Assembly (NCBI RefSeq): GCF_963676685.1
Contig: NC_092353.1
Span: 620,001-684,000 of the forward strand
Source: Mytilus edulis
Taxonomy: Eukaryota
Direction of reading: 5' to 3'
Length of the DNA: 64,000 bases
A model generated the notes under the pieces. The model was given only the letters and a program-made list of their open reading frames with translations, searched no databases and was not told where the DNA came from. Shown here piece after piece: positions 3,401 to 58,200 of the stretch. Positions within the stretch are counted from its first letter, which is position 1. The number at the start of each line of letters is the position of its first letter. Position numbers and translations under genes: made by a program.

Positions 3401-6400
3401 ATTGTCAAGTAGGCATTTCTGTGGCCATAGTTATGTCATGTAATTAGCAAGTTTCTACTGAACATGTCTTTAGATATATTTACCATAACATGGTAGAAAA
3501 AACGGTAAATCTAAAATGCTTTGTCAGCTATTTACAACACATGAGCTGCATCAGATACAAAAGAACCTTATGCAAGTGTACGTATACATGTAGATGTATA
3601 AGATTGTGATTAGTTTTGGAACATTATACAATATGAAAGATGAACTTTGGTCTGTTTAATAGGGTTCCTATATGAATTCAATTTACCTACAGTTACAGAC
3701 TTTACATACAGATTTGTACAACCCTAAATAAGTGACCAGATGCAATGAAAAGGGAGGGTATTTATTTGTATAAGGTTGAAATCTATCCGATGAAAGCTCA
3801 AAGTTTATCATAAGGTTGATATCTATCCGATGAAAGCTCAAAGTTTATCATAAGGTTGATATCTATCCGATGAAAGCTCAAAGTTTAGCTAAGGCTATAT
3901 AAAGAATTCAACGGTACTTGATATTTATTTTACCATAAGAAACTTGCAAATTTTAAAAACTTGTTGAGAAGCCATTACTGTAGCCATAGCTACTAGAGGT
4001 AACTGGCAAATTCTAATTTACTGTCAAGTAGGTATTTCTGTAGCCATGGTTACCAAAAGTAACAGGCAAATTCTAATTTACTGTCAATTAGACATTTCTG
4101 TAGCTATAGTTACCAAAAGTAACTGTCAAATTCATATTTACTGTCAAGTAGACATTTCTGTAGCTATAGTTACCAAAAGTAACTGGCAAATTCACATTTA
4201 TTGTCAAGTAGACATTTCTGTAGCCATAGTAACCAACAGTAACTGGCAAATTCTAATTTATGACAAGTAGGCATTTCTGAAGTCACAGTTATGACATGTT
4301 ATGAGCAAGTTCCTACTGAACATTTCTTTAGTCATATAGTAGAATAAATGGTAAATCTAAATGCTTGGTAAACTATTTACAACACATATTAGCTAAGGCT
4401 ATAGTTGCTAAAGAATTCCCCAGTAATTGATATGGTCATTTTGTGTGAAGAAAATTTTTTTCAAGTAAAAATCAAGGGCATAAAATGAACATGAAAAGGT
4501 GGTTCTCTGATTTTGAATATTATTCTCTGAAAATTTCTTAAAAAAAACCACCAAGAGCTATCAAAACAATGCTAGGACACCTCTCCCCCCTTGAAATAAG
4601 CCTTGGATATCTGAATGATATTGTATTAAACAAATTCTTTCAGTGAAAATGTCAACAAAGCTGTTGTGTAGCAAGTCACAGCCCATTCCAGCAGGTACTG
4701 TCTATAAGCTTCTCAAGAGAATACTGAGGAAATACAGGCAAATTCTACAGTTTTTATGCTGAAGCCGTCATAAATTTTAATTGTTCGATTTTCATGCCTC
4801 ATCTCAACAGATGTTTTTTTTAAATTGTGTTTTCTCTTTAGCTCCATGGGAGATGACAAAAGTAAACAAATATATAATTAACAAAAATAAACTGATAACC
4901 AATTTCTTACCCATGTTCCTGTCTATCACAAATAGAAATTGCATGAAAATCTAATATTTAATTTATCATGGCCTAATAGATACACACATGTATTAGAGTG
5001 ATACAATTAGATGCTATGGCAACACAAACTCACCTGCTGTTTTAAAAAAAAAATAGGAACAAAATTATTTCACACATGCCAAGAAATACTGACAGTACAA
5101 AATCTTGCAATAACTTCTAAATGCATATCAAAAATAGAACAAATACAAGGATTTAAATACGATAAAAACATGTAACAAAATTCATCCACATTCAATAAAA
5201 ATGATTTCTCATCTTTCTAAAAATAAAGTCACACATTCACACATGAACATAAAAAATACATGCTTCCTAAATCAAGCAATGTAATTCTTATAGAAAAAAT
5301 GTTTACAATTGTATTAAACAAAATCTTATCAGACATGTCAGATGGTCAACATGTATCAAGGTAAGTGACTCACCTTATAAATGGTTTAAATATATTTAGT
5401 AATAACTTGATAAAGTTTGTAGGATGGACTAGATATAAGGCTTTTAGATTCTTCTTGTACCTATAAAAGAAAGAATAAGGCCATACAAAAACAATCCTAG
5501 ATTCTTCTTGTATCTATAAAAGAAAGAATAAGGCCATACAAACACAATCCTAGATTCTTCTTGTACCTATAAAAGAAAGAATAAGGCCATACAAAAACAA
5601 TCCTAGATTCTTCTTGTACCTATAAAAGAAAGAATAAGGCCATACAAACACAATCCTATACTCTAACCCTAGCCAGTTTTTTTTCCCAGCAAAAACATCA
5701 GATGTACTGGACATATAGAACTTTTTAGATGTTGTTTTTCATGTTTTAATATTTTGAAACCTTTTTGGCAATTTTGAACAGTTGGGGTATCTACATATTA
5801 CACATAAACATTTGACAGATTTTCTTTGTTCACAAATACACAAAAATACATTTCCCCCCAAGATGCAGAACTCAATGATGAATCAGAGTGTTATAACCAA
5901 AGTACACTGAAGGATATATTGCATTTATCTAATTTTGTGAACTAAAAATGATGGAACACATTATGTTAATACTTTGAATTGGTATTCATACAAATAGGTT
6001 AATACAATATGCACAAATCATGTTATTTGTTTTATTAATTGAGAAATCCCTTTAAACACATACCTATCATTTTGTGACTTGAATATCTGAGTTTGCATTG
6101 TCAATAAATTTCATGACAATTTCTCTGTACATTAGTGACATCTACAATGAGACCAGATCTACACTGAATAGGGGCTTTACATTTGTGTACTTACTTTCTA
6201 TCAATTTCTCTGTACATTACTGACATCTACAAAGAGACCAGATCTACACTGAATAGGGACTTAACATTTGTGTACTCACTTTCTATCAAGTTCTCTGTAC
6301 ATTTGTAACATCCAGCCTAATTTAGGTTTGTTTTTACTTGTCAGTCCGTAGTGGAAGTAAACTATAACATAATCATTCTCCACATACTGATCCAAGGTGT

Positions 6401-9400
6401 ATTTAAGGTATCTGTAATATAGAAATCATGATCCTTTAACTAAATCCATTCTTTTTTCTTTATCTTTGTACATTTCTAAACATGTATTTTTAATACTTTC
6501 CAGGTTATAACATTGCTGTAGGAAGTCTACTTATAAAGTACAGCTACTTATATAAATGTATAGGAAGGAGAGATTTTTTGACAGCAGATGAAACACTTTG
6601 ATTTCTAGTGATCGTAGAAAATGAGGTTAACATTATAACTATTTCCTAAACCACTGCAACATTTTTGAAATGTCAGACTGAATATTGAGGACATCTGATT
6701 ATGACTGTTTACACCAGATAATAATGACTTTACTTAAAGAGGACATGAAGTAATGACTGTTTCTTTTAATTATGTAACATTTAACTGTGCATGTGCTTAG
6801 TCAGGAAATCTGGGTACAACAGTTTCCTATAACTTTGCAATATATTATTTTATACTGCAGCAAGTTGTGTTTATTTCCTAAATATAGTAACATAGCTATA
6901 TTTTGTATAATGTCAATTTCATCACGGAACACTTTCTCCACAAATAGGGGTTCATTTAGGGATGAAAATAAGTTTGACATTTGTGTTACGACCTAAAAGT
7001 TATCAATGTGTTAATTTTAGTTGCAGTATAAAAACAATATAAGGTCAATGTCATTAAAATATAAACTTGTTTGTACTCGGTGCAAAACTGGAGAAGGGCT
7101 TGGTAGAACCTCATCCATCCCCAGTTTCTCAGCCTCATACAAAAAAGTTTATATTTTTTCTGACATTGACCTAATATTGTATATGTATCTGTGAACTTAG
7201 AGGAAGTATACAAACTGAAGCTACAGTAACTGTTATAATGTTTTACTTACTCCATAAGTCGTTCATGATTTATCTGTGAACTTGGAGGAAGTCTACAGGC
7301 TGAAGCGACTATAACTTTCCGGCCATAAGTATCATCCCCTGCCAAAATCAAAATCAAATTAGGTAATGAATCATTGAAAAGTACAACAAAATATCTAGTA
7401 AGTCACCTGCCCATCCCCCATATTACAGATAAGTTACCACATGTTGACTCCCTTATTACTCTACTGAGCCACATCTTTGACCAGTTAGTAACTAGTTAGT
7501 AACCCTCCCCTCCCTCCCTCCTCCTTAACAGATAAGTTACCAGCAACTTTCAGTATACTGTACTGGCCACATCTCTGACTAGTAATTCTCCTTTCTCTTT
7601 CCCCTCCTCCCCAAAGAAATAACATATAAATTACCAGCAACTTCCAGTATCCTATACTGTGCCACATCTCTGAATTCTGATTCATCATTGTCCTCAGCAT
7701 CCTACAATTATATACATAAATGAACCAGATGCTCCGCAGGGCACAGCTTTATACGAACGCAGAGTTCGAACCCTGAACATTGGGGCAAGTATGATACAGC
7801 TCTGAATTTTGATTGTGATTAAATAGTTGACACAACACAGGTTTCTGACACATAATGACTGTGGTCTAATAACTCAAACTTAAAAACTTTAAAAAATTGG
7901 ACATTACCTATTATGGTCAAATATCCAAAATCTAAAAACATGGTTAGATTCAGCATATCAAAGAACCCCAAGAATTCAATTTTTGTTAAAATCAATCTTA
8001 GTTTAATTTTGGACCCTTTGGACCGGGTGTACACCAAAAATTTCTAGAATTAAACTTTTTTTCTTAACCTGATTTTTGGGTTTATATGACTGTAAACAAA
8101 TAATTGGTGAAGAAAAAATTACATGGTGGTGCACTTCTTTTTCTGCTACAGCCCTTTGAAAATACCCAATTTTGATGATTTTCCCGTTTTTCATCAATTT
8201 TTACCTATTTTTGGGCTATAATCCGAAAAAAAGTTACAGTTCCACAATTAAACTTTTTTTCATAATTTCAATAAAGATGAAGTGGACCAATCTGAGTAAA
8301 TTTAACTTAAAAAAAACAAAAAGTAGGTGTTAATATAAGAAAGTTTTATCATATTTTGATGCTTTTTTGTGTCAAATTTACCTTGCTGTCAATTTTGTAA
8401 ATTTGTGATTTTTCTCAGTTTTAAGAACAAAATGCATATTATTTCAAATTTTGTTGTCATAAATGATTGAAAAAATACATATCTAAGAAATTTGAAGAGA
8501 CAAAAATAATATGGGATGTACATGATTCTTGTAAAATCACTTTTTGTACCCCTCACCCATTTTCTTAAAATTTAGGCTAAAAAGACTGACTTGGTTTGTC
8601 GTAAAATTTGAAAACTGGATTACTCAAAAACCATTCATTGTAAATACACAATTTTTTCACAGAGTTATGTTTGTTTATAATATTTTTTAAATTCATTGAT
8701 ATTACCCACTTGTATTACATGTTTTTGAAATAATTCAAGAACAAGATTTTAACGAGACTGATCGAGACTGAAAAGTCATAAGAATACATCCTTAATGTAG
8801 ACCAATTTGAAACTGGGAGCAAAAATTAAGAATCTACATACATAGTTAGATTCGGCATATCAAAGAACCCCAATTATTCAATTTTTGATGAATTCAAACA
8901 AAGTTTAATTTTGGACCCTTTGGGCCCCTTATTCCTAAACTGTTGGGACCAAAACTCCCAAAATCAATCCCAACCTTCCTTTTATGGTCAAAAACCTTGT
9001 GTTTAAATTTCATAGATTTCTATTTTCTTATACTTAAGTTATGGTGCGAAAACAAAGAAAAATGCTTATTTGGGCCCCTTTTGGCCCCTAATTCCTAAAC
9101 TGTTGGGACCAAAACTCCCAAAATCAATCAAAACCTTCCTTTTGTGTTCATAAACCTTGTATTTAATTTTCATTGATTTCTATTTACTTATACTAAAGTT
9201 ATTGTGCGAAAACCAAGAATAATGCTTATTTGGGCCCTTTTTTGGCACCTCATTCCTAAACTGTTGGGACCAAGACTCCCAAAATCAACCCCAACCTTCC
9301 TTCAGCGGTCATAAACCTTGTGTGAAAATTTCATAGATTTCTATTTACTTAAATTAAAGTTATAGTGCGAAAACCAAGAAATGCTTATTTTGGGCCCTTT

Positions 9401-12400
9401 TTGGCCCCTAATTCCCAAACTGTTGGGACCAAAACTTCCAAAATCAATCCCAAACCTTCCTTTTATGGTCATAAAAAGTCTTTGGACACTGCTGCCGACG
9501 ACGACGCCAACGTGATACCAATATACGACCAAAAAAATTTTAATTTTTGCGGGAAAATTTTTTTTTGCGGTCGTATAAAAACATAGATATATGTCTTGCC
9601 TTTACATAGTTTTGAAAGTGTATGTATAATGCAAATGTTGATATACAAATTTTTAACTTTCAAACTACCCGTAGGCAAACAGAATAACTTTTGTCTAAAA
9701 TCTGTAAGTACTCATACCTTGACGATTTTAGCCTTTTTTTAATACATTTTTATAGTGTTTCCTTTTATGTCAAGTTCTTACAACTCTGTCTTGGGTTGGG
9801 GTGAAGGTTGGCGCCAAATAAAAATGTTTAAAGCAGCTTCATTTGTTTGCACCTGTCATATGTCAGATACCTGAATGTTCAGTATTTGTTGTTTGTTTGT
9901 TGTCTCATTGGCAATCATACCACATCTCCTTATTTCTATATATCTGGTATGTAATGGATTAATTTCATGAATGAATCATTGAGGCAAATAAATTGTTGTC
10001 TCAATATTCTGATCACACTTTTTTTTTTATTTAGTTGAGTGTCATAGAAATATTTCCAATATTCATCATGTCATTTTAGTAAATTGTATATGTTTTGATC
10101 AATATAACTTTTTTAGATTATTAATTTTTAATTCATCAAAAAAAAGAAGAAAGATAACCCATTCATAAAAATAAAATCACATATTTTAAAACTTTTTCCA
10201 TGGAAGTAACAAAATGCCCTTATAAACTTTACATATGAATATAAGAGATGACTTAAACTAGAATTACAGAGGGTGTTCCAAGTTCCTTTTCAAAATCATC
10301 TTCTATCAATCCCTCTGGTGTAATGGCTCCACTTCTAAACGCTATCTCTCCGGCTTGTTCTCTTGCCAAATCTGTAAAACACACACAACATCTGTGTAAT
10401 AAATACTCATCTTTAATTTGCCTTTTTTCTAAAAGAGGTAGACAAATATTTGTGACACTTACTAGGAGTTGTTTATCAAGAAATTAAGAAAATGAGATAT
10501 CTGTATGCAGTTATTAGTCTGTAACTTCAAACAGTGTCTATAACACCTAATTCTTATTGAAAATTATACATCAGAAGGATTTAAATTTATATTTCAATAA
10601 AAACACTCAATAAATTAAAAAACAAAAAGTGCCGGTATATTTAACCCAAATAAATTCTCACTATCCATGCTATCTGTGACTAAAAAATCAAAATTACACA
10701 AAAATCTACAAAAGTTTATTTATGCATGTATGTAGTTGAAAATATTAATTTAGTACTAGTAATATTAATTTTAGTATAACAATCATATACAGGTTACCTT
10801 GGTTACAGAATCATATACAAGAAAGTAATTACAGACATGCTATACATATATACACTTTATATATACTAGACGTATTAATATATTCTTTGCAGATAAATTA
10901 AGAAATAAGACAGTTTTAGTACTGAAGGAGCTTTGTACATACATATCAATCAATTTTCACAGACTGTTCTAGAGTATGTGATTTCTAACATATAAAGATG
11001 TTAATTGATATCTTGGACATGAAATTTATCTCTAGTAACGACTCTGGATACCAATCTTCTAATGATTTAACAGGAAGAACATGATGGGTATCAACAATGG
11101 AGCAGGAACTGAAGACCCATCCAGAGCATTCGTTTGATGGGGTTCATGTTGCCAAATTTTAGTTTTGTGTGTAGTAACTGTTTTATAAATTGTTGTTTGA
11201 CTTGGTTGTTTTCTTCTTAAGTTTGTTTCACTTCCTTGGTATAATGACATGTTTATGGAATATCATTCTAGTCTCAGAATTGGAGCTGACATGTTTATGG
11301 AATATCATTCTAGTCTCAGAATTTGAGCTCATGTTGGCGGATCTATTTTGATCATTTTCACAATTACTGTACCTGTTTAAGGGGAGGGGGAAGGGGCCTA
11401 GCCCCCTATGCTTTTGTAGCGAAAAAAGGTTGATTATTTAGGAAAGGAATTAATGAATCATGACTGTAGCAGGCCTCCTTTAAGGCAGTGAAAAATTCTG
11501 GATCAACCACTGACAATAGACAGATCATTTTGCTTTGAGAGTTTAGATCAACCACTGACAATAGACAGATCATTTTACTTTGAGAGTTTAGACTTGATCA
11601 ACCACTGACAATAGACAGATCATTTTACTTTGAGAGTTTAGACTTGATCAACCACCGACAATAGACAGATCATTTTACTTTGAGAGTTTAGACTTGATCA
11701 ACCACTGACAATAGACAGATCATTTTACTTTGAGAGTTTAGACTTGATCAACCACTGACAATAGACAGATCATTTTACTTTGAGAGTTTAGATCAACCAC
11801 TGACAATAGACAGATCATTTTGCTTTGAGAGTTTAGATCAACCACTGACAATAGACAGATCATTTTGCTTTGAGAGTTTAGATCAACCACTGACAATAGA
11901 CAGATCATTTTGCTTTGAGAGTTTAGATCAACCACTGACAATAGACAGATCATTTTGCTTTGAGAGTTTAGACTAGAAATTTGTCTTTGGATTATAAACA
12001 ATTGAAATGCTTGACACACTTAAACTTTGAATTTTGTTAAAGTAATATGTCAAAACTGAATGAATTCCTTATTTTGCCTAAAAAACGGATTTTTTCATTA
12101 GTGTGTTTTGTACTTAGTTTCTTTTTTTGTAATATCTAAATTTGTTTTTCATGAGGGTCTAAGGAAAGATTACTTTTACCCTCTTTAAAATAAAAATTAT
12201 TATTGACACATTTTTTACACCTTACAGTAAGTGACTAAATTGTAGGTTAGTAGTATATGGTACATGTACAAATAAAAACATCTATCAACAAGTTAATCTC
12301 AAAAACAAAATACAACAGCAAACAAGTTAGTTCTACAGAAAACAGGAACGTTCCATGCTCTCCTGGCTTATGTAGGTTAGCTCTACAGAGAACAAAAACT

Positions 12401-15400
12401 TTCATGCTCTCCTGGTTTATAAAGAAGATCCAAATACTACTTTCACATCCATCAATACATATCTAACATTGTGGTTATTTTGTTTTCTTCAGAATGATGT
12501 TTTTTTCTTCTCTTCAAGTTATACAATTTTTTTTTCTGTCTGACATAGATTGTTAGATTTACAATTTATTCTTTGTTTAATAAAACATGTATAACATTGA
12601 TACAATATAACTTTAATATGCAATTACTTAAACATGTGCATTACATTTTATGCATTGCAATCGCCCAAAAGAGCAGCTAACCCTAACCAATGTATTGTTG
12701 AATGCACCAAAAGTATAAATGAATCACAAATGCAATGTCCACAACATTTGATCTTACCTTCCTCCCATGATGTCATTGGTACATTATAATCTTCTGTTAT
12801 TCCTTAAATAATGAGCATCAGTCACTTAACAAAACATACCGGTTCATTATAATCTTTTGTTATTCCTTAAATAATTAGCATCAATCACTTAACATCATAC
12901 CAGTACATTATAATCTTCTGTTATTGAATATTCCTTAAATAATTACCATCGATCACTTAACAAAACATATTGGTACATTATAACCTTCTGTTATTCCTTA
13001 AATAATTACCATCGATCACTTAACAAAACATATTGGTACATTATAATCTTCTGTTATTCCTTAAATAATTACCATCGATCATTAAACAAAACATAATGGC
13101 ACATTATAATCTTCTGTTATTCCTAAAGTAATAACCGACAATCACTTAATATACCGGTACATTATAGTCTTCTGTTATTCTTAAAGTAATAACCATCAAT
13201 CACTTAACAAAACATACTGGTATATTATAATCTTCTGTTATTCCTAAAGTAATAACCATCAATCACTTAACATACCAGTACATTATAGTCTTCTGTTATT
13301 CCTAAAGTAATAACCATCAATCACTTAACATACCGGTACATTATAATCTTCTGTTATTCCTAAAGTAATAACCATCAATCACTTAACAAAACATACCGGT
13401 ACATTATAATCTTCTGTTATTCCTAAAGTAATAACCATCAATCACTTAACATACCGGTACATTATAGTCTTCTGTTATTCCTAAAGTAATAACCGACAAT
13501 CACTTAACATACCAGTACATTATAGTCTTCTGTTATTCCTAAAGTAATAACCATCAATCACTTAACAAAACATACTGGTATATTATAATCTTCTGTTATT
13601 CCTAAAGTAATAACCATCAATCACTTAACATACCGGTACATTATAGTCTTCTGTTATTCTTAAAGTAATAACCATCAATCACTTAACAAAACATACTGGT
13701 ATATTATAATCTTCTGTTATTCCTAAAGTAATAACCATCAATCACTTAACATACCGGTACATTATAGTCTTCTGTTATTCCTAAAGTAATAACCATCAAT
13801 CACTTAACATACCGGTACATTATAATCTTCTGTTATTCCTAAAGTAATAACCATCAATCACTTAACATACCGGTACATTATAATCTTCTGTTATTCCTTA
13901 AGTAATAACCATCAATCACTTAACATACCGGTACATTATAATCTTCTGTTATTCCTAAAGTAATAACCATCAATCACTTAACATACCGGTACATTATAGT
14001 CTTCTGTTATTCCTAAAGTAATAACCATCAATCACTTAACATACCGGTACATTATAATCTTCTGTTATTCCTAAAGTAATAACCATCAATCACTTAACAA
14101 AACATACCGGTACATTATAATCTTCTGTTATTCCTAAAGTAATAACCATCAATCACTTAACATACCGGTACATTATAGTCTTCTGTTATTCCTAAAGTAA
14201 TAACCATCAATCACTTAACATACCGGTACATTATAATCTTCTGTTATTCCTAAAGTAATAACCATCAATCACTTAACATACCGGTACATTATAATCTTCT
14301 GTTATTCCTTAAGTAATAACCATCAATCACTTAACATACCGGTACATTATAATCTTCTGTTATTCCTAAAGTAATAACCATCAATCACTTAACATACCGG
14401 TACATTATAGTCTTCTGTTATTCTTAAAGTAATAACCATCAATCACTTAACAAAACATACTGGTATATTATAATCTTCTGTTATTCCTAAAGTAATAACC
14501 ATCAATCACTTAACAAAACATACTGGTATATTATAATCTTCTGTTATTCCTAAAGTAATAACCATCAATCACTTAACATACCGGTACATTATAGTCTTCT
14601 GTTATTCTTAAAGTAATAACCATCAATCACTTAACAAAACATACTGGTATATTATAATCTTCTGTTATTCCTAAAGTAATAACCATCAATCACTTAACAT
14701 ACCGGTACATTATAGTCTTCTGTTATTCCTAAAGTAATAACCATCAATCACTTAACATACCGGTACATTATAATCTTCTGTTATTCCTAAAGTAATAACC
14801 ATCAATCACTTAACATACCGGTACATTATAATCTTCTGTTATTCCTTAAGTAATAACCATCAATCACTTAACATACCGGTACATTATAATCTTCTGTTAT
14901 TCCTAAAGTAATAACCATCAATCACTTAACATACCGGTACATTATAGTCTTCTGTTATTCCTAAAGTAATAACCATCAATCACTTAACAAAACATAATGG
15001 TACATTATAATCTGCTGTTATTCCTAAATTAATTACCATCAATCACTTAACATACCAGTACATTATAGTCTTCTGTTATTCCTAAAGTAATAACCATCAA
15101 TCACTTAACATACCGGTACATTATAATCTTCTGTTATTCCTAAAGTAATAACCATCAATCACTTAACATACCGGTACATTATAGTCTTCTGTTATTCCTA
15201 AAGTAATAACCATCAATCACTTAACAAAACATAATGGTACATTATAATCTGCTGTTATTCCTAAATTAATTACCATCAACATGATCAATCACTTAACATA
15301 CCATGCAACCAAAGCATAGAACAGCCTCATTGCAGCAACCAGATGCTCCGCAGGGCGCAGCTTTATATGACTGCAGATGTTGAACCCTGAACAGTTGGGG

Positions 15401-18400
15401 CAAGTATGGACACAACATTTAAGCTTGATACAGCTCTGAATTTGGATTGTGATTAAATAGTTGACACAACATAGGTTTCTGACACAGAATGAATGTGGTC
15501 TAAGAACTTAAACATGTTAAACTTAAAAACTTAAAAAGTTTAAATTGGACATATACCTATTATGGTCCAATATCCAAAATCTAAATACATGGTTAGATTC
15601 AGCATATTATAGAACCCCCAGAATTCAATTTTTGATGAAATCAAATAATGTTGAATTTGAGACCCTTTAGACCTCAATGTGGACTAATTTGATAACTGGG
15701 CCCAAATATTAAAAATCTAAATACATGGTTAAATTCAGCATATTGAAAAACCCCATATATTCAATTTTTGTTGAAATCAAACAAATTTTAATTTTGGACC
15801 CCGATTTGGACCAACTTGAAAACTGAGCCCATAATCAAATATCTAAGTACATGTTTAGATTCAGCATATCAAACAACCCTTAGAATTCAATTTTTTGTTA
15901 AATCAAACTAAGTTTAATTTTGAACCCTTTGGACCTTAATGTAGACCAAGTTGAAAACAGGACAAAAAATTAAGAATCTAAATACACGGTTAGATTTGGC
16001 ATATCAAAAAACCCCAATAGTTCATTTTTTGATAAAATCAAACAAAGTTTAATTTTAGAGCCTTTTGGCCCATAATTCCTAAACTGTTGGGACCAAAACT
16101 CCCAAAATCAATCCCAAACTTTCTTTTGTGGTCATAAACCTTGTGTTAAAATTTCATAGATTTCTATTTACTTATACTAAAGTTGTAGTGCAAAAACCAA
16201 GAAAAATGCTTATTTGGGACGTTTTTTTGGCCCCTAATTCATGTACTGTTGGGACCATAGATTTCTATTTACTTTTACTAAAGTTATATTGTGAAAACCA
16301 AATGTCTTCGGACGACGACGACGTCATACCAATATACGACCAAAAAATTTTCAATTTTTGTGGTCGTATAAAAATCAGTTTGCATTAAACTGCAAAGAAG
16401 CTCAAATTCTGTAGAATTTTAATTAAGTAAATTGACTCAACAAGTGGTCTTTCTTGAAATGTAAAATAGTAGAAAATGTGAACCTAGATCCCTAATGAAA
16501 AGAGAAGAGCGGAAAGTGATCAATCTGTAAAACTTTTCATTTAAAAGTGAAATTTTTATTTTTGTTTATGCAGCAAGAAAACGAATCCAATCTTTTATTC
16601 TTATTTTTTGAAACACATTATAAGGGCTAGTTATTCTTAAAAGATTCTACCATTTATTTATCTTTTTAACACCTTAAATTTGCTTTTCTATAATCATGAT
16701 AACAATCCATACAAAATATGGTAATTTTGCTCAAGCTCTAGCTTAAAAAAAGAAGCTCTGTGACTTTTTATTATACTCATTACCATGATTACCAAACTTC
16801 TTATTAAATTCAACCTCTTCTTACTTTTTTGTGCTTAGGTTATAATAAGAGAAAAAGAATTATAAAAAAGATTATTTCACCAATTTTCTAAAGAACTTCC
16901 GAGTTCAGATTTACATTGACTATAAAAGTGACAAAAGATGGAAGTGAATAGATTTCTTAATAACAAAAAACTGTTAAAAGTTATTTCTTCATAATTCTAT
17001 TCAGTATACATAGACTGTTTTTGCTGAATTTATTTACACAAAAACACAGAGTTTACAATGTACATCTGATAAATTCCTGACCTTGTAGTATGTAAATATT
17101 GATTTGTTGATTTTTATATAACAACAAACACTCAATGATTCAATGGTAAAATACTGTTACACTTAAAATACATAAATAAGGGATTGATAGAATGTATCAT
17201 ACATGTAATGTATAGATAATGAGGATTTAAAATTAAAGCACTTTAAAGTTTAAAAATTTGAAAGTAATAACAAAATCTTTCATGCAAAACACATGCAAAA
17301 TAAAAGCATAGAAACCAGATCCTTGTGATCAAACTAAAACCCCATAGATTCTCAGGATCTATGTTTAATTCCAAAGATCCTTAAAAGATCTAACTAAAAT
17401 CCCAAAATCTTGCACAACATGAGGTTTACCTTCTAATTCTGCTTCTAGATCTAACTCAGCTGATAAATAACAAATGTATTGATAAAGAAACATACTGGGC
17501 AATATATTGCAGAATAAAAGTTTACTAATCGTTTTATTTATTCATAAATCAAGTTTAATATAAATATGATGTGTTTTGAATAGAAATTTCCTATCAAATG
17601 TATTTTTAAGTACTCTTTATATCTTGAGTTAACGTTTTGTTTTCATATAAAATATTATAATATTGAGATTGTGCAATTGCTAAGTAGACATTGTGTACCA
17701 TGTGTACTGCCTCTCCATACCTGGAGCTTACCAGTCTGTCAGAACTCACTTAATATTTGTCTCCAATGAGTTACCGGTAATGTTTTGCTTCATGTATGAG
17801 GAAAAAATTAACTGCTTGAACCTTTTTATCACACATTAAAAAGAGCTTCTCTGGAAGACATTGTACAGAACAATCGGTCAGAAATCCATTCATAAGTTAG
17901 TAAAGAGCTGTTAATAGTATCTTAGTTCAACGTTACATAAAAACAGTAGATTAAAATGCAATTTTAACAACATAGGATAAAATAATGTAAAGAAGTGGAC
18001 AATACCTTCTTTAGATGCTAGCTGTAAGCCACTTTCATCAAACTCAAACTCTGGATCTTCAGTACTGGCAAATAATTCATTATCTCTGTTGGCTTCATGG
18101 AATTCTGTAATAAACAAAAAGCTGTTTGGTAGATTAAATAATATTGAGATATATGTTTTTAAGTCTTTACTTTTGTAAGTAATGTGTTGTATACTGTTGT
18201 TTAGTCTCTTGATCTTTTTTTAATTAAAAAAATTATTGAAACCTACTTCTGCTTTGTCTGTTATATGGTGGGGTTGTTGTCTCTTTGACACATTCCCCAT
18301 TTCCATTCTCAATTTTATTTAAAGTCATGAAAGTGTGTGGTTTTTTGTTTGTTTGTTTGTTTGTTAAGACATACAACATGCATTTTCATGTTTTCATTCT

Positions 18401-21400
18401 TCTTTTAAAAAAATTGAGCTACATAAACTTGATTTTATCATGTCTATGTGAACACTTAATATAATAAGATGATTGAAGGATATGCTCTAAAATTTACATG
18501 TATATTAAGGAAAAGTAGTCAAATGTTACAAAATGTTCTGATTTAAATGATTTTATATTTAAAATGAATCCATGACAACTGTTGTGAATTGACCTTTTTT
18601 GACCCTATTAAATTCCTAAACAGTTGGGACCATAACCCCCAAAATCAATCCCACACTTCCTTTATTGGTTATAAACCTTCTGTTAAAACTTCATGATTTC
18701 TTTTCACCTATACTAAAGTTATTATTCTGCAACCATCTGTATTTGGATGAAGCAGACAACGACAACAATGTGATACCAATACATGTACGACAATTTTTTT
18801 TTAAATTTTTGCGGCCGTATAAAGGGTAAGATACCATTGAAATAGGTTGAATAACTTGCCCCACTTATGAAAAAGGGTAAAATCCTGTTGAAATAAGCTT
18901 AAGGTCTGCTCCACTCATGACAACTAGATAAACTACGATGACTTTAGTATTCATGGCAACTCGCCTCACTTAAGAAAAACAATGCAATCCCGTGGTATAT
19001 CTATGTCTCTGCCCCACTTATAAATAAATTCAACACATATGAAAACCTAAGATAAACATTTTTTTGTAGATATTTTAAACATATTCATTTATAGTGGATT
19101 GGGAAACAAGTTATTACAAAAGTTGAACTTATGTTAATCCCTTTCCACTATATATGAGTGCCTTTTTTGTAGTTCTTTTCATTTTGATGAAAAAGAAGTG
19201 AAAATCAGTATTTCTGTGATGTGACTTCCAACTAGCCCCACTTGTGTTTTTTAAGTTAAAATAAAGCAGAAAGAAGTAAGCATCAACATTTCTTTGACGT
19301 TTTTTCCCCTATTAAATATATATTCAATGTTTTGTAAGATAAGTTAAGAATCATGTGTGTTTATTGGCATGATAACACAAAATGGAGTACTAGTACTAGA
19401 TGAAATGTCCGCACTAGAAACATGAACATGATAACACATATATTGTATACAATAGATTGTCATTAGATAGTTCTGTAGCTGTCTGCTGTCGAGAACTTTT
19501 AGGTTTTTTTGGTATTCTGTGTAGATTAGTTTTCATTTAAGTGGGGCGAGTTAGCAGACCTGAAAATTTGTATTCATCTAGATTTTACGTAATTTGCATT
19601 ATGTGGGGCGTGTTGGCAAAAGAAAAATTTATGAGATTTAACGCTTTCAGGTTGATCCGGCCCCACGTCGATCCAGCCCATATGTAAAGTCGATCCAGCC
19701 CCAATAAAAAATATATTTATAAGGAATAAAAATAAAGATATATATATTAATTGTAATTCATAAATGTTTATGATTTTTATCATAATGTAAAAGGTGTACT
19801 TTTAAAAAAATAAAAAAAGCCTTTGAAAAATATTTTCTTTAGATGAGTATAAAACAACTATGTTTTTCTTTTAATTTCTTTAAATTTCTAAAATGTTGTT
19901 TGATTTGCCGAATCCTGTGCATTTAATGTCATGTTATTTTCTTGCAATAAAGCATAATGGATACTCATATAACTTGTTTTTATTTATCAACAAAATATTG
20001 TCAACTTTAAGAAAAATATTTTGACTATATCACGGCTGGTAATCTACACACGCAGAACATTTGGTTCTGCAATGAAAACCGTGAGAGGATTTTCTGGTTG
20101 TGCTTGAGGGGAGTAATTGTCACCGCTTCAAAAGGTATGTACATTTCTAAATCACAATTTTCTTATTCAACTGATCAAAATATTGAAAATCGGAGAATGC
20201 TATGCTGTGGTGAATACATTAACGAAGAGATACATGTATCATTTACTGATGAATATGGACTTGAACTCCTACAAAATCAGTTGTCCCACGAGAAATTGCC
20301 TAAAAAAGTGACATTTGAATTTTTAAATGGTTCTATTAACAGACCTACAAGTTCAAATTCACTTGTTTTTCGGTCAATGGGTATGAATGGCGTTTTTGGC
20401 GGCGTGTACGCTGTCCGGTGTTGATAGACTTCTTCATAAATCTAAAATCCTCATATTTTCATCATTTCATGCGTGAGGGGATCGGTTCTGATTGAGGACA
20501 TCCTGAATGCGTGAGGGGACGTGAAATCATATCTGTATATCCAAGCTATGAGTCGTTGAAAGTTGGCTAAATTTTGTTAAATTGTTCATGAAAAAAACAC
20601 ATGTGTGTGCATGAAATTGTGTGATAGAATTTTGAAATATCAATAAATCACCAAGCTTTTGTTACATGAACAAACAATCTAACCAATAAGTTCCAAATAT
20701 GTCTCAAAATTTGCGGATTTAAGCAAATAATCAGTCTAGTTTGGAGACTTATTTGCAACTGAATTTATTGGTTAGACTGTTTATTTTATACAGACAACTT
20801 GGTGATTTTGTGTATAAATCAAATTGTTTCATATCAATTCAATTTTAGTTGGTTTTTCTTTATGAATAAATAAGCATATTCACTTGCGGAAATGGTATAT
20901 TCACCGCGCAAATGTCACGTACTTTTACGTGCATAATTCTTATAAACTTGTTTTATGTAAAATTTGTTTTGATAAATAATTACATACATTTTTGTCGGAA
21001 TATGGAATAAAAGAATTACTGTCTTTTGTAAATATGTGGTTTAATTGATTTTTGAAAAAAACTGATATTCACTTCGGCCGTTGGCTTCAGTGAAAATCAG
21101 TTTTTCATAAGTCAATAAAACTATTTACCTCATCCAAAGACAGTAATTGTACAATATTTAAACAAATATCAAAACTTGAGTTTTAACAATCAATTTTTTT
21201 GTCAAATAAGCAATTTAAGGGGAGATAACTTTTTTCGTAAAAAATAAAAACTGAGATGGTTTTAACTTAAAAATTTATTTGTAGCAAGAAACAAAAACGT
21301 TGACACAATTTTTATTTTACTGATTCTTCGTAAAACATAGCATAAAACCTATCTTCCCTCAATTTATTTCAAAATTCTATTTCATAATTTTGTTTATGCA

Positions 21401-23136
21401 CAAACATGTGTTTTTACATCATCAATTAAACCAAATTTAGCCAACTTTCAAAGACTCATAGCTTGGATATACAGATATGATTTCACGTCCCCTCACGCAT
21501 TCACGATGTCCTCAATCAGAACCGATTCCCTCACGCATGAAATGATGAAAATATAAGGTTTTTAGATTTATGAAGACGTCTATCAACACCGAAAAGCGTA
21601 CACGCCGCCAAAAACGACATCCATATCCATAGACCGAAAAACAAGTGAATTTGAACTTGTAGATCTGTTAATAGAACCATTTCAAAATTCAAATGTCACT
21701 TTTTTAGGCAATTTCTCGTGGGACAACTGATTTTGTAGGAGTTCAACTCCATGTACACCAGTAAATTATACATGTATCTCTTCAATTAATGTATTCACCA
21801 CAGCATAGCATTCTCCGATTTTCAATATTTTGATCAGTTGAATAAGAAAATTGTGATTTAGAAATGTACATACCTTTTGAAGCGGTGACAATTACTCCAC
21901 TCAAGCACAACCGGAAAATCCTCTCACGGTTTTCATTGCAGAACCAAATGTTCTGCATGTGTAGATTACCAGCCGTGTATATTCGATATTACAAAAAAAC
22001 AAGTGTTATAGAAGCCTATGATGTACCTGAAAAAAAAATGTACAATTAATACTTATTATTTATACCAAACAAAAAGATCAAACTTTAAAGACCTTGTTGA
22101 TTACGTACCTTTAATCATAGATGTAATGGGTATTACATCTATGCTTTAATTAATCAGGCTTTGATTGAATTAAGTGATTACCAGTGGCATCACCTTAGTT
22201 CACAATCATCAGACAATTGTTGAATTAACAAACCAATTATAGACTAATGATTTGCTTAAACAAGATATTATGATGAGTTAAATTTGAACGGTTCCATTGG
22301 ACTGTAAATATTTATTTAGCTACTCTGTGTGAGAAGTAAATAAAAAAAAATCGCCATGACATTCAAAGTCAACATGGAAAGTATCTTCACATTTTAAAAC
22401 ATTTAAATTCTTATACTGCTATACACAGACACAATAACACTCAGTTTCGTATTGATTTAAAATTGTTCTTTAACTGGTACTCCAATACTTCACTTATCTG
22501 TTGTCGTCCATCATCGACACTTTTTGCAAATTCCGTTTATACTGTTCAAATTTGTGACAAATTCCTCCATATAGTGAATATATAGTTTATTCATATTTCA
22601 TTATTGGGCTGGATCGACTTGGGCCCCGGATCGACGTGGGCCGGATCGACTTGGGTCGGATCGACTTTGGGCCGGATTGACTTGGGGCCGGATCGGTTTG
22701 GGGCCGGAACAACCGGATACCGATTTAAATCTATTCACAAGTTAGCTGTCAGTTAACTGCGAGTACATGTACTCTCACTTACATTGTCATTTCAGGGCCT
22801 GTTATAGCTGACGGCAGTATGGGCTTTCCTCATTGTTGAAGGCCGTAAGGTGACCAATAGTCGTTAATTTCTGTGTCATTTTGGTCTCTTGTAGAGAGTT
22901 GCATCATTGGCAATGATACCACATCTTCTTTTTTATATGATATTCTGAATTTTTGTTGGGTTTTTCACTTTCTTTTATTTTTTTTTATCATATTAGAAAT
23001 AACAAAACTCTTCTATGACATGCAACATTCAGTTTGAATATTAAAATCTTTTACCTGCTAACAGCTCTGAAGAGAGTTCCTCTCCACTTGGAGTATCTGT
23101 TTTATTTTGAAGGCCTTGCTCATTTGTTGAACTCAT
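401..23136 (-). CDS. ARHGAP1: ARHGAP1/ARHGAP8-like Rho GTPase-activating protein (BCH/CRAL-TRIO domain + start of RhoGAP domain); multi-exon, 3'-partial (runs off left edge)
   Basis: Manually assembled GT-AG exons with consistent phases: 23055-23136 ([11 protein letters not shown]..), 18006-18104, [12758-12802 optional], 10268-10371, 7635-7701, 7251-7338, 6280-6411, 5374-5460, 817-915, 401-511. Translation ..[94 protein letters not shown] matches the BCH domain of p50RhoGAP/Cdc42GAP as I recall it, followed by the FGV motif that opens RhoGAP domains. Confidence 0.9.
3050..3430. repeat. 60-bp tandem repeat (~6 copies); sister array at 3970-4290
   Basis: gggcaattcttatttattgtcaagtaggcatttctgtagccatagtaacc units. 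Confidence 0.85.
5445..5656. repeat. 53-bp x4 tandem repeat spanning an ARHGAP1 splice acceptor
   Basis: tagattcttcttgtacctataaaagaaagaataaggccatacaaaaacaatcc; the first 16 nt of the unit are exonic. Confidence 0.9.
7723..9580. mobile_element. Helentron/HINE-like non-autonomous element with internal tandem repeats, interrupted by a ~8025-8791 insertion
   Basis: Subterminal tttatacga(a/c)cgca inverted to terminal tgcggtcgtataaa, with internal repeats cctaaactgttgggaccaaaactcccaaaatcaa. Same family as 15337-16372 and ~18590-18822. Confidence 0.65.
11502..11972. repeat. 45/50-bp minisatellite (~10 copies)
   Basis: gatcaaccactgacaatagacagatcattttgctttgagagttta(gactt). Confidence 0.9.
12758..12802 (-). 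CDS. Candidate 45-nt symmetric (phase 1-1) microexon of the ARHGAP1-like gene, (G)[14 protein letters not shown]
   Basis: Minus strand ctcattatttaag|GAATAACAGAAGATTATAATGTACCAATGACATCATGGGAGGAAG|gtaaga. Frame is open, phases match the flanking exons, and the donor is strong. Confidence 0.6.
12776..15302. repeat. 58/62-bp tandem array (~43 copies) anchored on the microexon acceptor
   Basis: cataccggtacattataatcttctgttattcctaaagtaataaccatcaatcacttaa. Confidence 0.95.
15337..16372. mobile_element. Helentron/HINE-like element, same family as 7723-9580
   Basis: Shared start aaccagatgctccgcaggg and shared end atacgacc...ggtcgtataaaa. Confidence 0.65.
19642..22722. mobile_element. Non-autonomous DNA transposon with subterminal gggccggatcgactt repeats and a 6-bp TSD
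   Basis: Left end cgctttcaggttgatccggccc and right end gggccggaacaaccggataccg are imperfect inverted repeats. atttaa is duplicated at 19636-19641 and 22723-22728. Confidence 0.65.
20031..21977. mobile_element. Foldback-type element with ~550-bp terminal inverted repeats and CAC..GTG termini
   Basis: 20031-~20580 is the near-identical reverse complement of ~21432-21977; flanked by tatat on both sides. Confidence 0.85.
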
Positions 23137-24925: not shown

Positions 24926-27900
24926 ATGACATCCATGAGCTCTTTGAAGAGTAAGCTACACAAACTGAAGAAGGAGGATACCAGTGAGGTGACAGGTTAG
25001 TATTGGTTAGCTAATCTGGCTTTGTTTTAACATGATATTATCTGTCGCTTTATCAGCATGTCATGACAGATTTATAGCTTTACCTAGCCATTTCATAAAT
25101 AAGAAAAGATATGAATGTCCACTCTTAATGGCTTTAGATGTAGAACTGTCCTTTTAGTTAAAAAATGGCAAAGCATTGAAAATCTTTAAAAATTATGATG
25201 TTCCTAAATACTACTTCATTTTTTCATTTCTAAACATGCTAAATAAAAACAATAAATAAAAACACTTTATTGGAAAAGAGTGAAAACATTTACAACTATA
25301 GCTCTTACCATTCCTTTTCTTTACTTAACTTCCAAGAATTTTTCAGATTATAAAACATGGATGAGAAAGATAACTGACTGTGGGAACCGTGCTGAAGATT
25401 GGTTAGAATATACAACTTACATGAGACACAATCTGAACTTTAATGATAGGTTCCAGGCTCATAACTTTCTCTCTGATCTGTATGAGAAAGCTTTCAGGGT
25501 AAGAGTCCCATACAAACTTTAATGATAGGTTCCAGGCTCACAACTTTCTCTCTGATCTGTATGAGAAAATTTCAGGGTAAGTGCTCCATAAAAACTTAGA
25601 AACACACTATACTTGTAGCTATGTATATTTGAGATCATACTATTTTTATTTAATGTCTAATATGTTACACGATCTTTATTTAGATCTGAGAGCACACTAT
25701 CTTTAAATTCAGAGATCACACTATATCACTCAGATGTCACACCATATTTATTTATATCTTAGAGATCACACAATCTTTAAATCTCAGAGATCACGCTATA
25801 TCTCTCAGAAGTCACACAATATTTATTTAGATCTGAGAGCACACAATCTTTAAATCTCAGAGATCATACTACGGTATATCACTCAGATGTCAGACCATAC
25901 TTATTTATATCTCAGAGATCACACTATCTTTATTGATATATATTTCAGAGATCACACTACATTTATGTCTTAAAAATCACACCATCATTATTAATATCTC
26001 TCTGTCTTTATTTACAGGCTATTGATGGAAAGGCAAATAAAGACAATGAAGCATTTGCTCATCTATTTATAGACTTTGCTGAGGTCAAAAGGTAATATAA
26101 CAGATAGATTATTGTAATAATTTTGTAAGATTGTGGAGATAGCACAACGATGCCATACAGTACTTTCGTGAGATTGGTTAATGAATATTTGTTACAAACA
26201 TGAGCACCAATATTTACTTCCCAAAATTGCAAATGCAGCTCTGAACCAATTTGTTTTGTCCTTAATATCATGATCAACGTTAATTCCTCCATTTCTTGTA
26301 GGGATCTTTGGCATATCAAAACTATAGTCACAACATGTACTTATAGTACAAAATTAACTTAAAGCTTTTATTTTTTATTCTCTGATATTTTGTTTGTGAG
26401 GTGTTGTCTTTTCCTTTATCCTTGACTCTAATTTTCCTTAGAATTCAAATTTATGTGGGAAATGGTATTCCTCAATGATGAAATTATGGAAAATAACAAT
26501 GGCTGTTTTGTTTGACAGTTTTTAAAACAGCAATTTCTTACTGTGGTATAACTAAATAAAGTGAATGTTAACTGCCATAGTATTTTGTTTAGTCAAGAAA
26601 ATTTATTTCCAGAAACAAAAGCATAGTTTGATAATTGATTTATTCATAATTTACAGTGAACAGTTGCTATTGGAAGATGCCATTCAGCTGCTAACAGAAG
26701 CAAGAAACATAGTCAAAAGATATGCCATAGTTCATATTGCTTCAGCAGAGCTAGAGGTCAAAGAAGGTAAACATTTGTATTTTTTGTTTAAAGAATATTA
26801 TAAAATATGCATTTAAACTTGACTGGCTCATAGGGGTGTGAGAGCCTTTGCAATCATTGTGTGTCCATTGTCCAATTAGGGAGAAAAATATACAAGTTTT
26901 GGAGTTATTTCCCCTGAAATATACATATTTCACAATTTTCCCTGTTATTTTGAAAACTACAGTAGCTAGGTTAAAAGTTAACACTGCATAAATGATGAGC
27001 ATGATAAGATCTATCTCCTGGAATATTTTTGTCAATCTGTTTTGGATTATTTGTTCTTTAAAAGTAGATTTGTTTTACTGTTTTATGCAATTTTGACTGT
27101 TACCTAAATAACAAAAATGTGCTAGCTTAAACATGTAAACTGCAAAAATGTTAAGCATCATAAAGAGTTACTGTATTATGTGCATATTAAAGTCATAATT
27201 AGTAAACAAAAACATCACTTGTTCTGTATATAAAATTGAAGGTATATATTCCAAGTCATTTTATTTGTGTAAATTTGTGTTTTCTTTGTTTTGTAGGAAA
27301 TATTAGTAAAGCCAGAAATATTCTGAACAAAGCTAGATTGTTTAAATTTGAGCCTACAGAACTATTAGTGGAAGCTTTAAAGAAACTTGATGCTGGAGAA
27401 ACCATTTTACTGTCACCAAGGCATAGAAGATACAGTATGTATATTCACATACTTGCTAAGTAGAAGCACAAGTTGCATTGTCTAATGTTTTTTTACATTA
27501 TTGAATTTTAAGAAGGTGTGGCTTAGGATTCAAATTATTGACAACTGGCTTATGGACACTCCTTACAGAAAAATGATTCCACTGAATTTGTATTAAAAAA
27601 CTAGTTCTATACTGACAAGATTACCATTAATAATATTTCTAAGAAGTTTTTATGGACTGTTAATTATATGGTTTCACACTTACAAGTTGTTTCTTTTATA
27701 GTTACTAAATAAATCATCATGCAGGTCTATGCAAAAATTAGATAATTTATCAGAGTAAAATTTGTTAAGATTTGAATTTAAGTTTAGGGTATATTTTTAA
27801 AGGAAAATCTTTCAGTAAATTCTATAATGCAGGTTCAGCTAAATACTGAAACTGGTTATGGTAAGATGTATATATGATGAAGTCCATGTTACCATTCAGC

Positions 27901-30900
27901 ATACTGATGAGAAACAATTTTATATTTTTGTAGGTTCTAGCCAAAGTAAAGTGAACCTGTCGGATGATAGTCAAAGCATATTCCATGGTGGTGCTCCTGA
28001 AGGGTAGGAATTAATGTTATTCTTATTGATACAGAGCTTTAATTGCTGTTCTTCATCTCAAAGTCACAATGGATCATGTTAACCTTTAATATACCTAATG
28101 CACTGACAGTAAATAAGTAGTAGCTAGTATTTTGGTGGAATTAAAAAAGTGCAACATTTATAAATCACTTGATAAATGTAAATCAAAAATCCTCTCAGTC
28201 GATTATCGAAACTTATTCTGTAGTTTTTTTAATTTCAACCTATACCTATTTTTTGTAAGTACTGATGAAAATGGTTACTGTATCAGGTAATTAACGTTTC
28301 CTGCAAATAATAGATTAATTTGTGATGCACAGTTTACTACAAAACAAAATGATATAAGATTGCGCAAGTTGCTTGCTATGATATTTCTCAGTTCTATTTA
28401 TAAATGTTAAGTTAGGAAGTTTGATTGTGATGTGCTTTAGGAATTTACAAGAACATATTGGACCCGATGAAATGGAGACTGCACCAGTTATGATGGAATC
28501 TCATAAAGAGAAATATGTAACAGTGCGGGCCAACTCCTGTAGACCTGCCATGAGAAGTTATAGTAGTACACCAGAAATGAGGAGTCTGTCCAATCTTCAG
28601 TGGAAAAGGTATGGTCTACCACTATATGATAAGGAAGACAATTTAAAAATATTTGGTAATGAGAATTGGAACATATTTTGGTCAATTACTTTAAGCAAAA
28701 TTTTCATTGACTTCTTCCTTCAACATTATCTAGATGGTATAAAGTTTACACTCTTAATATTCTCGAGCTATCTCCCTTTCCAAATATAAAAATAGCTGAA
28801 TTTGCCATATATTTTCAAGCATCTGTGTCCTTTGGACACATTCTTTTATTAAAGAATTGTTAAAATTACACCTTGAGAACACAACTCCTCTGTGACCTTT
28901 TTATACAAAACTCTAATTGGTATGATTTTATGCCATCCATTTATACCTGCATTTTTATGCCCCACCTACGATAGTATTATGTTTTCTGGTCTGTGGCTCC
29001 GTTCGTCTGTGCATCCGTTCAGGTTAAAGTTTTTGGTCAAGGTAGTTTTTGATGAAGCTGAAGTCCAATCAACTTGAAACTTAGTAGACTTGTTGCTTAC
29101 GATATGATCTTTCTAATTTTAAAGCCAAATTAGACTTTTGACCCCAATTTCACAGTCCACTGAACATAGAAAATGAAAATGGGAGTTTCAGGTTAAAGTT
29201 TTTGGTCAAGGTAGTTTTTGATGAAGCTGAAGTCCAATCAACTTGAAACTTAGTAAACTTGTTGCTTATGATATAATCTTTTTAATTTTGAAGCCAAATT
29301 AGACTTTTGACCCCAATTTCACGGTCCACTAAACATAGAAAATGAAAGTGGGAGTTTCAGGTTAAAGTTTTTGGTCAAGGTAGTTTTTGATAAAATTGAA
29401 GTCCAATCAACTTGAAACTTAGTACATATGTTCCCTATAGTATAATCTTTCTGATTTTAATACCAAATTAGATTATTACCCAATTTCACGGTCCATGGAA
29501 CATGGAAAAGGATAGTGCGAGTAGGGCATCCATGTACTTTGGACACATTCTTGTTTAGACTATTTTTATAGGAGTCAGTGTTCTCCCCAGGCTGTTTTAG
29601 CGTCGCGGTACCGCGACGCTATAATTATTTTTAGAATGTAATTTTTCTCGTTTCTGTATGGCAAAGCCATGTCCTAAATTGTGAACTTTCATCTAATTAC
29701 CGCTTATGATCATAAAAAAATATATCACCGTTAATTGTAATCCCTTCAAGTCAGACAATAGAGGCAATTTAAAGAGATTACATAGTGTTAATTGCCCTTT
29801 GGGTGATAACTGGTTGGATACGAATACCCCAAGCTGTCACTTGTGACATGATTAATACCACGTGGTATGCAATCGCAAATTTCGACAAGGAGAAAATTAA
29901 ATCAGAAAATCATAAAATAAAGCAAAATATATGTTTGCAAAATGAAAATTCAAAGAAACAAACATTTTTTCTCTTTTAAAAAGAGATTGAGTCTTATCTT
30001 TTTATTACTTTCAAAATATTAGTATTACTTTCTTTCTCTTCCTATTACTAGTTGTAAATCGAGAGTGAAAATTTTGATTTTGAGCTATATAAGTTTTGAA
30101 CTTTCTTTAGAAAGTGATCATAATTGGCTTAAGCTTATGTTTCATCCATTTAATGCATTAAAAACGCCATATTCATTCCCAATCTCTTGTCAAACATTAT
30201 TTTATTTTCACATTTTTCATTGCTTTCGGCGGCCATTTAATATTTTAGTGTAAACTACTGATCGGAATTGGACCAGATATGACAAAAATCTGCATTTTAC
30301 AATAATAACTACATATCCACAAATGGCACAGTTGACAGAAAACTAAGCATTAACAGACTATTTATTAGATAACTTTGTTAAACATATATATCATTTTGAT
30401 AAAAAAAAGTTTTTTAATTTAAATTTTATTGCTAAATGATACTTTCTCTTCCCTTTTTTTTGGTTATACGAACCAGTGTTTTTTCCTACATATTTAGTTC
30501 AATTGTATCTATACACATATATTTTTATTTGGCCCAAGAGGAAAAAAATAATTCTGGAACTATAAATGAATATAGAAAACATAAACTGAAAATACTGTTA
30601 TCATGGTTTTAGTTTAATTGTATTCTCAGTTATGAATTCAACAACATAGACAGTGGCGGATCCAGAAATTTTCATAAGAGGGGGCCCACCGACTAACCTA
30701 AAGGGGGGCCCGCTCCAGTCCAATTTATGACAAAAATAAGCAAAGACCCATCGAAACAACATCTGATAAACAAATTTAATAATACTTTTAGATATTTGGA
30801 TGATATTTTGGCTCTCAATAATGACGACTTCAGTATGTATATTAATGAAATTTATCCTGTTGAACTTACTTTAAATAAAGCTAATACTAACAATGACCAC

Positions 30901-57800: not shown

Positions 57801-58012
57801 CCAGTAGCTTCCTTGCGGCTTTCACCACTGGCAATCATACTATTTACTTGAAGGCCTATTCGTAAAGCGGTTGTGTTTGATTCCTTTGTTGCTGTTTCCG
57901 TAACTTTAATCTTTTTATAGGATAGGGTTGTTGGCCCTATGCCAAACCCCCTGCTTGGAGGGCCAGGGATTTTTCGTCGAGGTTTCCTTCCTTTAGATAA
58001 ATTGCCTACCAA
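54836..58012 (-). CDS. RTE ORF: apurinic-like endonuclease + reverse transcriptase (1058 aa from TTG; first ATG at 57838)
   Basis: APE motifs GFWNVRT, LGVSECRW, YAPT, GDLNAK, IDH, SDHHLV. RT motifs NWRGITLLS, QAGFR, FVDFQKAFDS, GVRQGC, LDFADDLALL, YLGS. RTE-type C-terminus KRGRPKNTWRR. Confidence 0.95.
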   Translation of the reverse strand: MVGNLSKGRKPRRKIPGPPSRGFGIGPTTLSYKKIKVTETATKESNTTALRIGLQVNSMIASGESRKEATGRNEVLSAKAKTRIGFWNVRTMYETGKLAQVTSEMRRYNLHILGVSECRWTGSGKMKTDTGETVLYSGREDNHHFEGVAIILKKGTEKVLIEWKPVNSRLITAKLKGVHTNMTLIQCYAPTNDSDEAAKDTFYEQLQAEVRLVPRHDLLVVMGDLNAKVGNNNTDMDRIIGEHGCGTINDNGERLVELCAAYNLVVGGTLFPHQDIHKLTWCSPNGRDKNQIDHLMINGTWRRSLLDVKVKRGADVGSDHHLVTANIKMKLRSTGRKTLVPTRYDIEKLQDHKVKNAFILQMKNKFQALTDNPDIVPSETTEVNTKWDQIRTIYETTSQDCLGFKQGKKMKKWITPGTWKVIEERRHMNKKILDTKSERLQERHKAAYRVLDKNVKRMARADKRAYMEDLAKQAEEAAEKGEQGKIYKITREICGKFRSNNDVHIKDKNGRLLTTENEQKARWAEHFQEVLNRPAPDEEAIIIEALEDLEINTNLTERQEIITAIKALKNGKSPGQDNLNAELFKVDPELAAEILQSLFTSIWKGKIIPDDWTKGIIIKLAKKGALSDCNNWRGITLLSIPSKIMAKIIIQRIIDAVDKQLREEQAGFRKGRGCIDQIFALRNIIEQCTEWQRQLYINFVDFQKAFDSINRKTLWRILRSYGIPKEIIELIKSFYNNFTCSVGQSNIWFEVKTGVRQGCVMSSLLFNVVIDWVMRKTMEDSPRGIRWNLSATLEDLDFADDLALLSHTHHHLQEKTNRLNTFASQVGLKISQTKTEVMTLNINNPTPILVDGKDLPITETFTYLGSTIRNDGGAGNDIMNRLNKARNIFRSLNNVWKSSQYSKKTKLKLYQSCVLSTLLYGSKCWRMTEVDQNKLSVFHTKSLRRILRIFWPNKISNEDLLNQCQQNSMGTILVKRRWKWIGHVIRRDSNSITRTALHWTPEGRRKRGRPKNTWRRTVEGELKTMNKTWGTVEKMAKDRQKWRTFVAALHADGIPGSK

Positions 58013-58200
58013 GGCTGACGAACCATTATCTGCCCGTTTTTGGAGTTTCTTTCTCCTAGATAAATTACCTTCCTGGGTTAACGATTTTCATCTAACCGGC
58101 TATTTACCCATAGTTGGGGCAAGGTTAATGAGAGTAAGGGCGTGTCCACACGTCGGTGGGCCTACACTCTGCATCTTTAGGGCCCTTGCTGCTCCAAGAT

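Follow-up and report, generated by a model that had tools for sequence, protein, structure and literature searches.

An ARHGAP8-like gene of Mytilus edulis carries, directly before a real 45-nt cassette exon, 41 imperfect tandem copies of the end of the preceding intron together with the start of the exon, and the array can be classed as a large acceptor-side 'mirage' minisatellite, a repeat type that is already known. Probably it is a largely silent side product of tandem duplication at this locus and does not regulate its host gene. The window, that is, the whole stretch of DNA that was analysed, comprises 64,000 nt, and coordinates refer to it unless they are marked L009 (Table 1).

On the minus strand the array runs from 15260 to 12758 and consists of 42 units, namely 41 imperfect pseudo-units and a terminal one, the true exon (12802-12758). 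Its repeat statistics are far beyond chance (TRF score 3609, matches 91%), and a genome search with the unit returned 41 matches, every one of them within the array, i.e. a single locus in one haplotype. The array originally predicted from the letters is thus real, and the predicted number of about 43 pseudo-microexons was close, the actual content being 41 pseudo-units, the true exon and an upstream intron-only partial copy (about 15302-15261, minus strand). A 58-bp unit with a 32-nt gap, as first described, holds for 26/41 units but not for the others: 13 measure 63 bp, one 61 bp and one 70 bp, and the spacer from GT to the next AG is 35-44 nt outside the 26 units. In 36/41 units the copied exon start differs from the original at 0-2 of 26 letters. 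The acceptor AG is retained in 36/41 pseudo-units, a GT after the 26 nt also in 36/41, and both in 31/41. Measured over the 58 letters of the consensus, units 1-36 differ by 0-4 and units 37-41 by 6-20, with mild divergence only at the upstream edge, which suggests a homogenised core and an old edge adjoining the true exon; altogether there are 16 distinct pseudo-unit sequences, arranged in a patterned order with diverged edges. A metagenome scan for other haplotypes of the array gave 52 pattern matches, none of them confirmed, and no related locus. Several other identities were considered and rejected: a transposon or dispersed satellite by the single locus in the genome, a cluster of tandem alternative exons because chained units hit a stop at once, and intron gain inside a coding repeat by the spacers of 32-44 nt and the lack of any such protein.

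The donor-like site of the units had been described as newly formed, but the hexamer is inherited, as the same GTATGT is found in the intron flank upstream of the first unit (ATG/GTATGT at 15304-15296, minus strand). Given that this flank site scores 8.8 in the matrix described below, against 8.4 for the commonest unit donor, the donor-like site is older than the array; the intron already contained GTATGT when the duplication took place, and the one novelty is its position behind an exon fragment. Among the 41 units the junction reads ACCGGTATGT in 25, ACCAGTATGT in six, ACTGGTATG in four and ACCAATATGT in two, three further forms accounting for the remaining four, and most of these variants can be explained as the exon joined in register to the flank at slightly shifted points, or as derivatives of the most frequent form by CpG transition. 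We infer that the array originated by duplication and unequal exchange. More specifically, a segment of ~63 bp, whose first letters are a donor-like GGTATG located ~37 nt upstream of the acceptor, would have been duplicated, which would have placed the donor-like motif behind the exon fragment, and unequal exchange would afterwards have expanded the array and homogenised its centre, while the edges diverged.

The host gene is the Mytilus ARHGAP8-like gene: its exon at 6410-6279 (minus strand) is 100% identical to protein P0001, whose 90% cluster holds Mytilus records named 'rho GTPase-activating protein 8-like' with CRAL-TRIO and RhoGAP domains. P0001 itself has PF13716, PF00650 and PF00620, and the order of CRAL-TRIO/BCH followed by RhoGAP is the architecture of ARHGAP1/ARHGAP8; this match and PF00620 support the earlier assignment of the gene as encoding a RhoGAP. 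The protein maps exon by exon onto 11 exons in the window and five more in L009, and the gene spans >29 kb. According to the protein models, the start codons of ARHGAP8 (23136, minus strand) and of TTK (23457, plus strand) are arranged head to head ~320 bp apart, which suggests a shared promoter. By eye, a ~550-bp element occurs twice in intron 1 of ARHGAP8, in inverted orientation and nearly identical sequence (20011-20570 and 21350-21960).

The 45-nt exon is real and frame-preserving, as had been proposed. Its peptide occurs in 8/15 listed cluster members (cluster total 30), carried by records naming M. edulis, M. galloprovincialis, M. trossulus and M. coruscus, and in a Logan-only protein from a 3.3-kb contig that we take to be a transcript because the gene spans so much more. 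The splicing step from 18006 to 12802, suggested for counting, overlooked the 30-nt cassette exon lying between them (17459-17430); all four combinations of including or skipping the two exons are found in protein records, all in frame. The joint of 18006 to 17459 is covered by five reads in two of four RNA runs; these raw runs, chosen by species label, were aligned to 16400-18300 with an exon-2 depth of ~1.5-7.6, and their loose ends are dominated by a dispersed repeat (18254-18300), so that splice partners downstream are hidden. Oysters, scallops and clams have the peptide of the 30-nt exon, and where Mytilus has the 45-nt exon they carry an optional segment that is longer, different in sequence and built around a Pro...Trp core, so the cassette position is old. 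The exact peptide was seen in Mytilus records only, and the proposed check for its 14 letters in mollusc orthologues therefore turns out positive in Mytilus and negative in oysters, scallops and clams, where the longer segment is not identical.

Table 1. Positions of the array, its host exons and other junction-associated or intronic repeats.
Feature	Position	Strand	Remarks
Acceptor-side mirage-type minisatellite, 41 tandem pseudo-units	12803..15260	-	26-nt exon-start copy + 32-44 nt intron-end copy each
Intron-only first part copy and flank	15261..15304	-	donor-like ATG/GTATGT (15304-15296), pre-existing
True 45-nt in-frame cassette exon	12758..12802	-	weak acceptor, strong GTAAGA donor; protein records
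30-nt in-frame cassette microexon	17430..17459	-	RNA reads + protein records; conserved in bivalves
First coding exon, ARHGAP8-like	23055..23136	-	protein mapping
Upstream exon (coding exon 2)	18006..18104	-	all listed Mytilus isoforms
Downstream exon	10268..10371	-	all listed Mytilus isoforms
56-bp x34 array	44549-46456	+	copies end + donor of TTK/Mps1 kinase exon (true donor 44588)
TTK donor-side duplication, 87 bp x7	42717-43316	+	
TTK donor-side duplication, 36/72 bp	33479-33767	+	
TTK donor-side duplication, 36/71 bp	43651-43841	+	
TTK donor-side duplication, 79 bp x2	25436-25597	+	
ARHGAP8 acceptor duplication, 53 bp x4	5445-5658	-	
ARHGAP8 donor duplication, 85 bp x2.3	6117-6312	-	
ARHGAP8 donor duplication, ~94 bp, degenerate	about 7485-7635	-	
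ARHGAP8 donor duplication, 42 bp x2	L009:9852-9938		
62-bp x43 array, 98% identity	L009:3967-6628		wholly inside ARHGAP8 intron, touches no junction

On a small matrix built from the window's own junctions, 27 acceptors and 28 donors, the donor of the true 45-nt exon scores 11.1, above all 28 real donors when these are scored leave-one-out (maximum 9.9), and its copies reach at most 8.4, a value in the upper range of real donors. At the acceptor the score is 4.9 in 28 units as opposed to 2.6 for the true site, so that most pseudo-acceptors lie above the true one; 24/27 real acceptors score at least 4.9. The shortest listed intron of ARHGAP8 and TTK measures 296 nt, and the array spacers (32-44 nt) are far below this. 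However, the true acceptor is likewise preceded by a donor-like site, 37 nt upstream, and crowding therefore cannot tell the true exon from the copies. According to a review, exons <50 nt tend to be skipped and microexons depend on stronger splice sites (PMC8911335). Yet ARHGAP8 itself splices a 30-nt exon, and shortness is therefore not enough to silence an exon in this gene.

The consequence of using a copy was modelled with the 30-nt exon left out. Splicing of a 26-nt unit to 10371 leads to a stop at codon 79; if the unit is joined to the true exon instead, or to a further unit, the stop falls at codon 71. All 36 AG-bearing read-throughs and all 31 inclusions of complete units stop before codon 85, as poison exons do, in agreement with the original prediction that inclusion of a 26-nt unit would shift the frame of the RhoGAP mRNA. 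These stops (codon 71-79 of ~490) precede both domains and many later junctions, and for stops so placed nonsense-mediated decay (NMD) is expected.

To what extent junctions in this region are copied was assessed with a 20-letter stretch across each junction, counted when it recurred within 400 bp with at least 16 matches. Of the ARHGAP8 and TTK junctions, 8/57 in the window and 1/9 in L009 have such a copy (9/66 in all); the copies are all intron-side, two at acceptors and seven at donors, and a 79-bp duplication at 25498, which scored 15/20, is excluded from the count. In introns outside arrays, 522/3658 grid positions have a copy (14%, a rough background that includes internally repetitive mobile elements), and compared with it the 8/57 junctions show no repeat enrichment at splice sites (binomial p=1.0). 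This suggests that local duplication is frequent here and that the array is one of its products, without any mark of special design. The neighbouring TTK/Mps1 gene has duplicated sites at 4-5/18 donors and 0/18 acceptors; nearly every one of its exons matches an M. edulis protein at 100%, and the animal is accordingly a Mytilus, probably M. edulis.

Further repeats and open frames were observed in passing. A 110-bp x24 array (50388-53064, plus strand), for which no host exon was found, has units resembling AG + 24 nt + GT, and a 35-bp x39 array (53063-54415, plus strand) abuts it. An open frame of 1083 aa at 54836-58087 (minus strand) looks, by its motifs, like the endonuclease/reverse transcriptase of a non-LTR retrotransposon, and a TTK intron holds a 248-aa fragment (30697-31443, plus strand) that is presumably reverse-transcriptase-like. 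In other animals, a TTK model of Nucella lapillus and two unnamed ORFs (P0171, P0172, P0177) repeat the same kinase exon start with short segments between, which suggests that acceptor-side mirages may have been read into their gene models.

If the array is mostly silent, the spliceosome would define the last copy and no other, since all 45 nt, a purine-rich 3′ half and the strongest donor are found nowhere else in the array. The shorter, 26-nt copies are crowded, each donor-like site lying 32-37 nt before the next AG, an intron far too short, and any rare leak product would hit a stop at codon 71-79 and probably undergo NMD. Protein records are consistent with this: among 229 proteins, nine hold the repeated peptide and all nine continue into the true exon, NMD targets being poorly shown in protein databases and records with the 45-nt exon possibly stemming from animals without the array, and none of 11 short N-terminal search matches is a truncated unit-derived product (a weak test for NMD targets). 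It is possible but unlikely that an unselected array leaks nonetheless, i.e. that the 31 complete pseudo-exons together draw off a measurable fraction of transcripts or make inclusion of the true exon less frequent, producing frameshifted NMD targets and a loss of ARHGAP8 that depends on copy number. The presence of both AG and GT in 31/41 units, acceptors above the true one, a donor of 8.4 and modelled stops in every case argue for leakage, as does precedent in the published descriptions, since single units of the human ABCA7 VNTR are retained and its exon skipping is tied to VNTR length (PMC5954066), and the 6-16 and CBS minisatellites employ nearby pseudo-donors (PMC1557585). However, the protein searches, weak as they are for such targets, gave no unit-derived product, and amphioxus mirages with AG/GT signals are reported as leaving splicing undisturbed (PMC3087553, PMC3902484). 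Rather improbable is a heritable rheostat, in which added copies would divert ARHGAP8 transcript to frameshifted, NMD-degraded forms or lower 45-nt inclusion, so that alleles differ in RhoGAP dosage; it too draws on the 31 complete AG-26 nt-GT units with acceptors above the true one.

The original prediction had left two options, a silenced array or a copy-number-tunable splicing sink; the former fits the protein records and the latter finds no support, arrays occurring here at background rate. That selection keeps the array to dial ARHGAP8 dosage via poison exons is very unlikely: the donor-bearing junction is indeed the majority form (ACCGGTATGT, 25/41) and the host exon is already alternative, but the majority junction matches the ancestral flank, homogenisation accounts for its spread, similar arrays exist at 9/66 junctions, and the same gene has the purely intronic 62-bp x43 array. 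Moreover, oysters, scallops and clams also use the cassette as an alternative exon, and its optional use would therefore need no array. It is equally unlikely that assembly has partly created the copy number; long arrays of near-identical units are difficult for assemblers, yet the 16 distinct sequences, their patterned order and the diverged edges at a single locus look like real turnover.

By itself the array is an ordinary though large mirage repeat, of modest value as a natural test of 3′ splice-site choice, with 36 near-identical acceptors, 31 of them followed by a usable-looking donor, standing before the acceptor that protein records use. About one in seven splice junctions in ARHGAP8 and TTK has a copy, which can mislead gene prediction and exon-based markers in mussels. 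Should the copies leak in proportion to their number, the array would match, in an invertebrate, the effect of the ABCA7 VNTR.

The array shares the defining features of mirages: its unit spans an authentic boundary (the intron end and 26 nt of exon 12802-12758), the authentic exon is the terminal copy with the extra copies intronic, and evolution is concerted inside with divergent edges. Mirages were reportedly first described in amphioxus in the Adh3 paper. No description of mirages in bivalves was found in the literature searched, most subscription journals and supplements lying outside it, where a bivalve survey could exist. Ebner et al. 2010 describe amphioxus mirages, acceptor-side in BflGb6, with AG/GT signals kept, centres homogenised and splicing undisturbed (PMC3087553), and PMC3902484 adds one in amphioxus PGBD5 and cites Adh and troponin C. 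As described there, BflGb6 and BflGb9 resemble the mussel array in tandem copies across an intron/exon boundary, many units with AG/GT, and a homogenised centre with divergent edges, BflGb6 also in being acceptor-side (intron 3′ end and exon start); they splice normally to the authentic copy, and in the mussel the nine peptide-bearing proteins, which use the true exon, suggest that the same may hold. The mussel array differs in having 41 extra copies (vs 3-6), a unit of 58-63 bp (vs 150-160), a host exon that is short and alternative, mostly complete AG-26 nt-GT units, and a mollusc rather than a cephalochordate as its host. A minisatellite of abalone is, in the account of PMC6905558, intronic only.

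With poison exons of SR-protein genes the mussel units share that inclusion would give a premature stop. Such NMD-coupled cassette exons are single, conserved and demonstrably included; the mussel has 31 near-identical copies. The human ABCA7 intron 18 VNTR likewise bears splice sites and leaks into a frameshifted isoform, single-unit use giving a frameshift and a premature stop (De Roeck et al. 2018; PMC5954066), but as described it is donor-side with a measured effect on splicing, whereas the mussel array is acceptor-side and known from sequence and protein records. Finally, the human minisatellites treated by Borensztajn et al. 2006, namely the F7 IVS7 37-bp VNTR, 6-16, CBS IVS13, LMNB2 and PDGF, also reiterate a real splice site, and in their account authentic or nearest sites alone are used, some with nearby pseudo-sites (PMC1557585). 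The work on F7 treated donor choice only, and F7 and its kin are donor-side and explained by 5′-to-3′ scanning, whereas the mussel array concerns acceptor choice and its used site is the last acceptor, so that exon definition, rather than first-come scanning, would have to be invoked.
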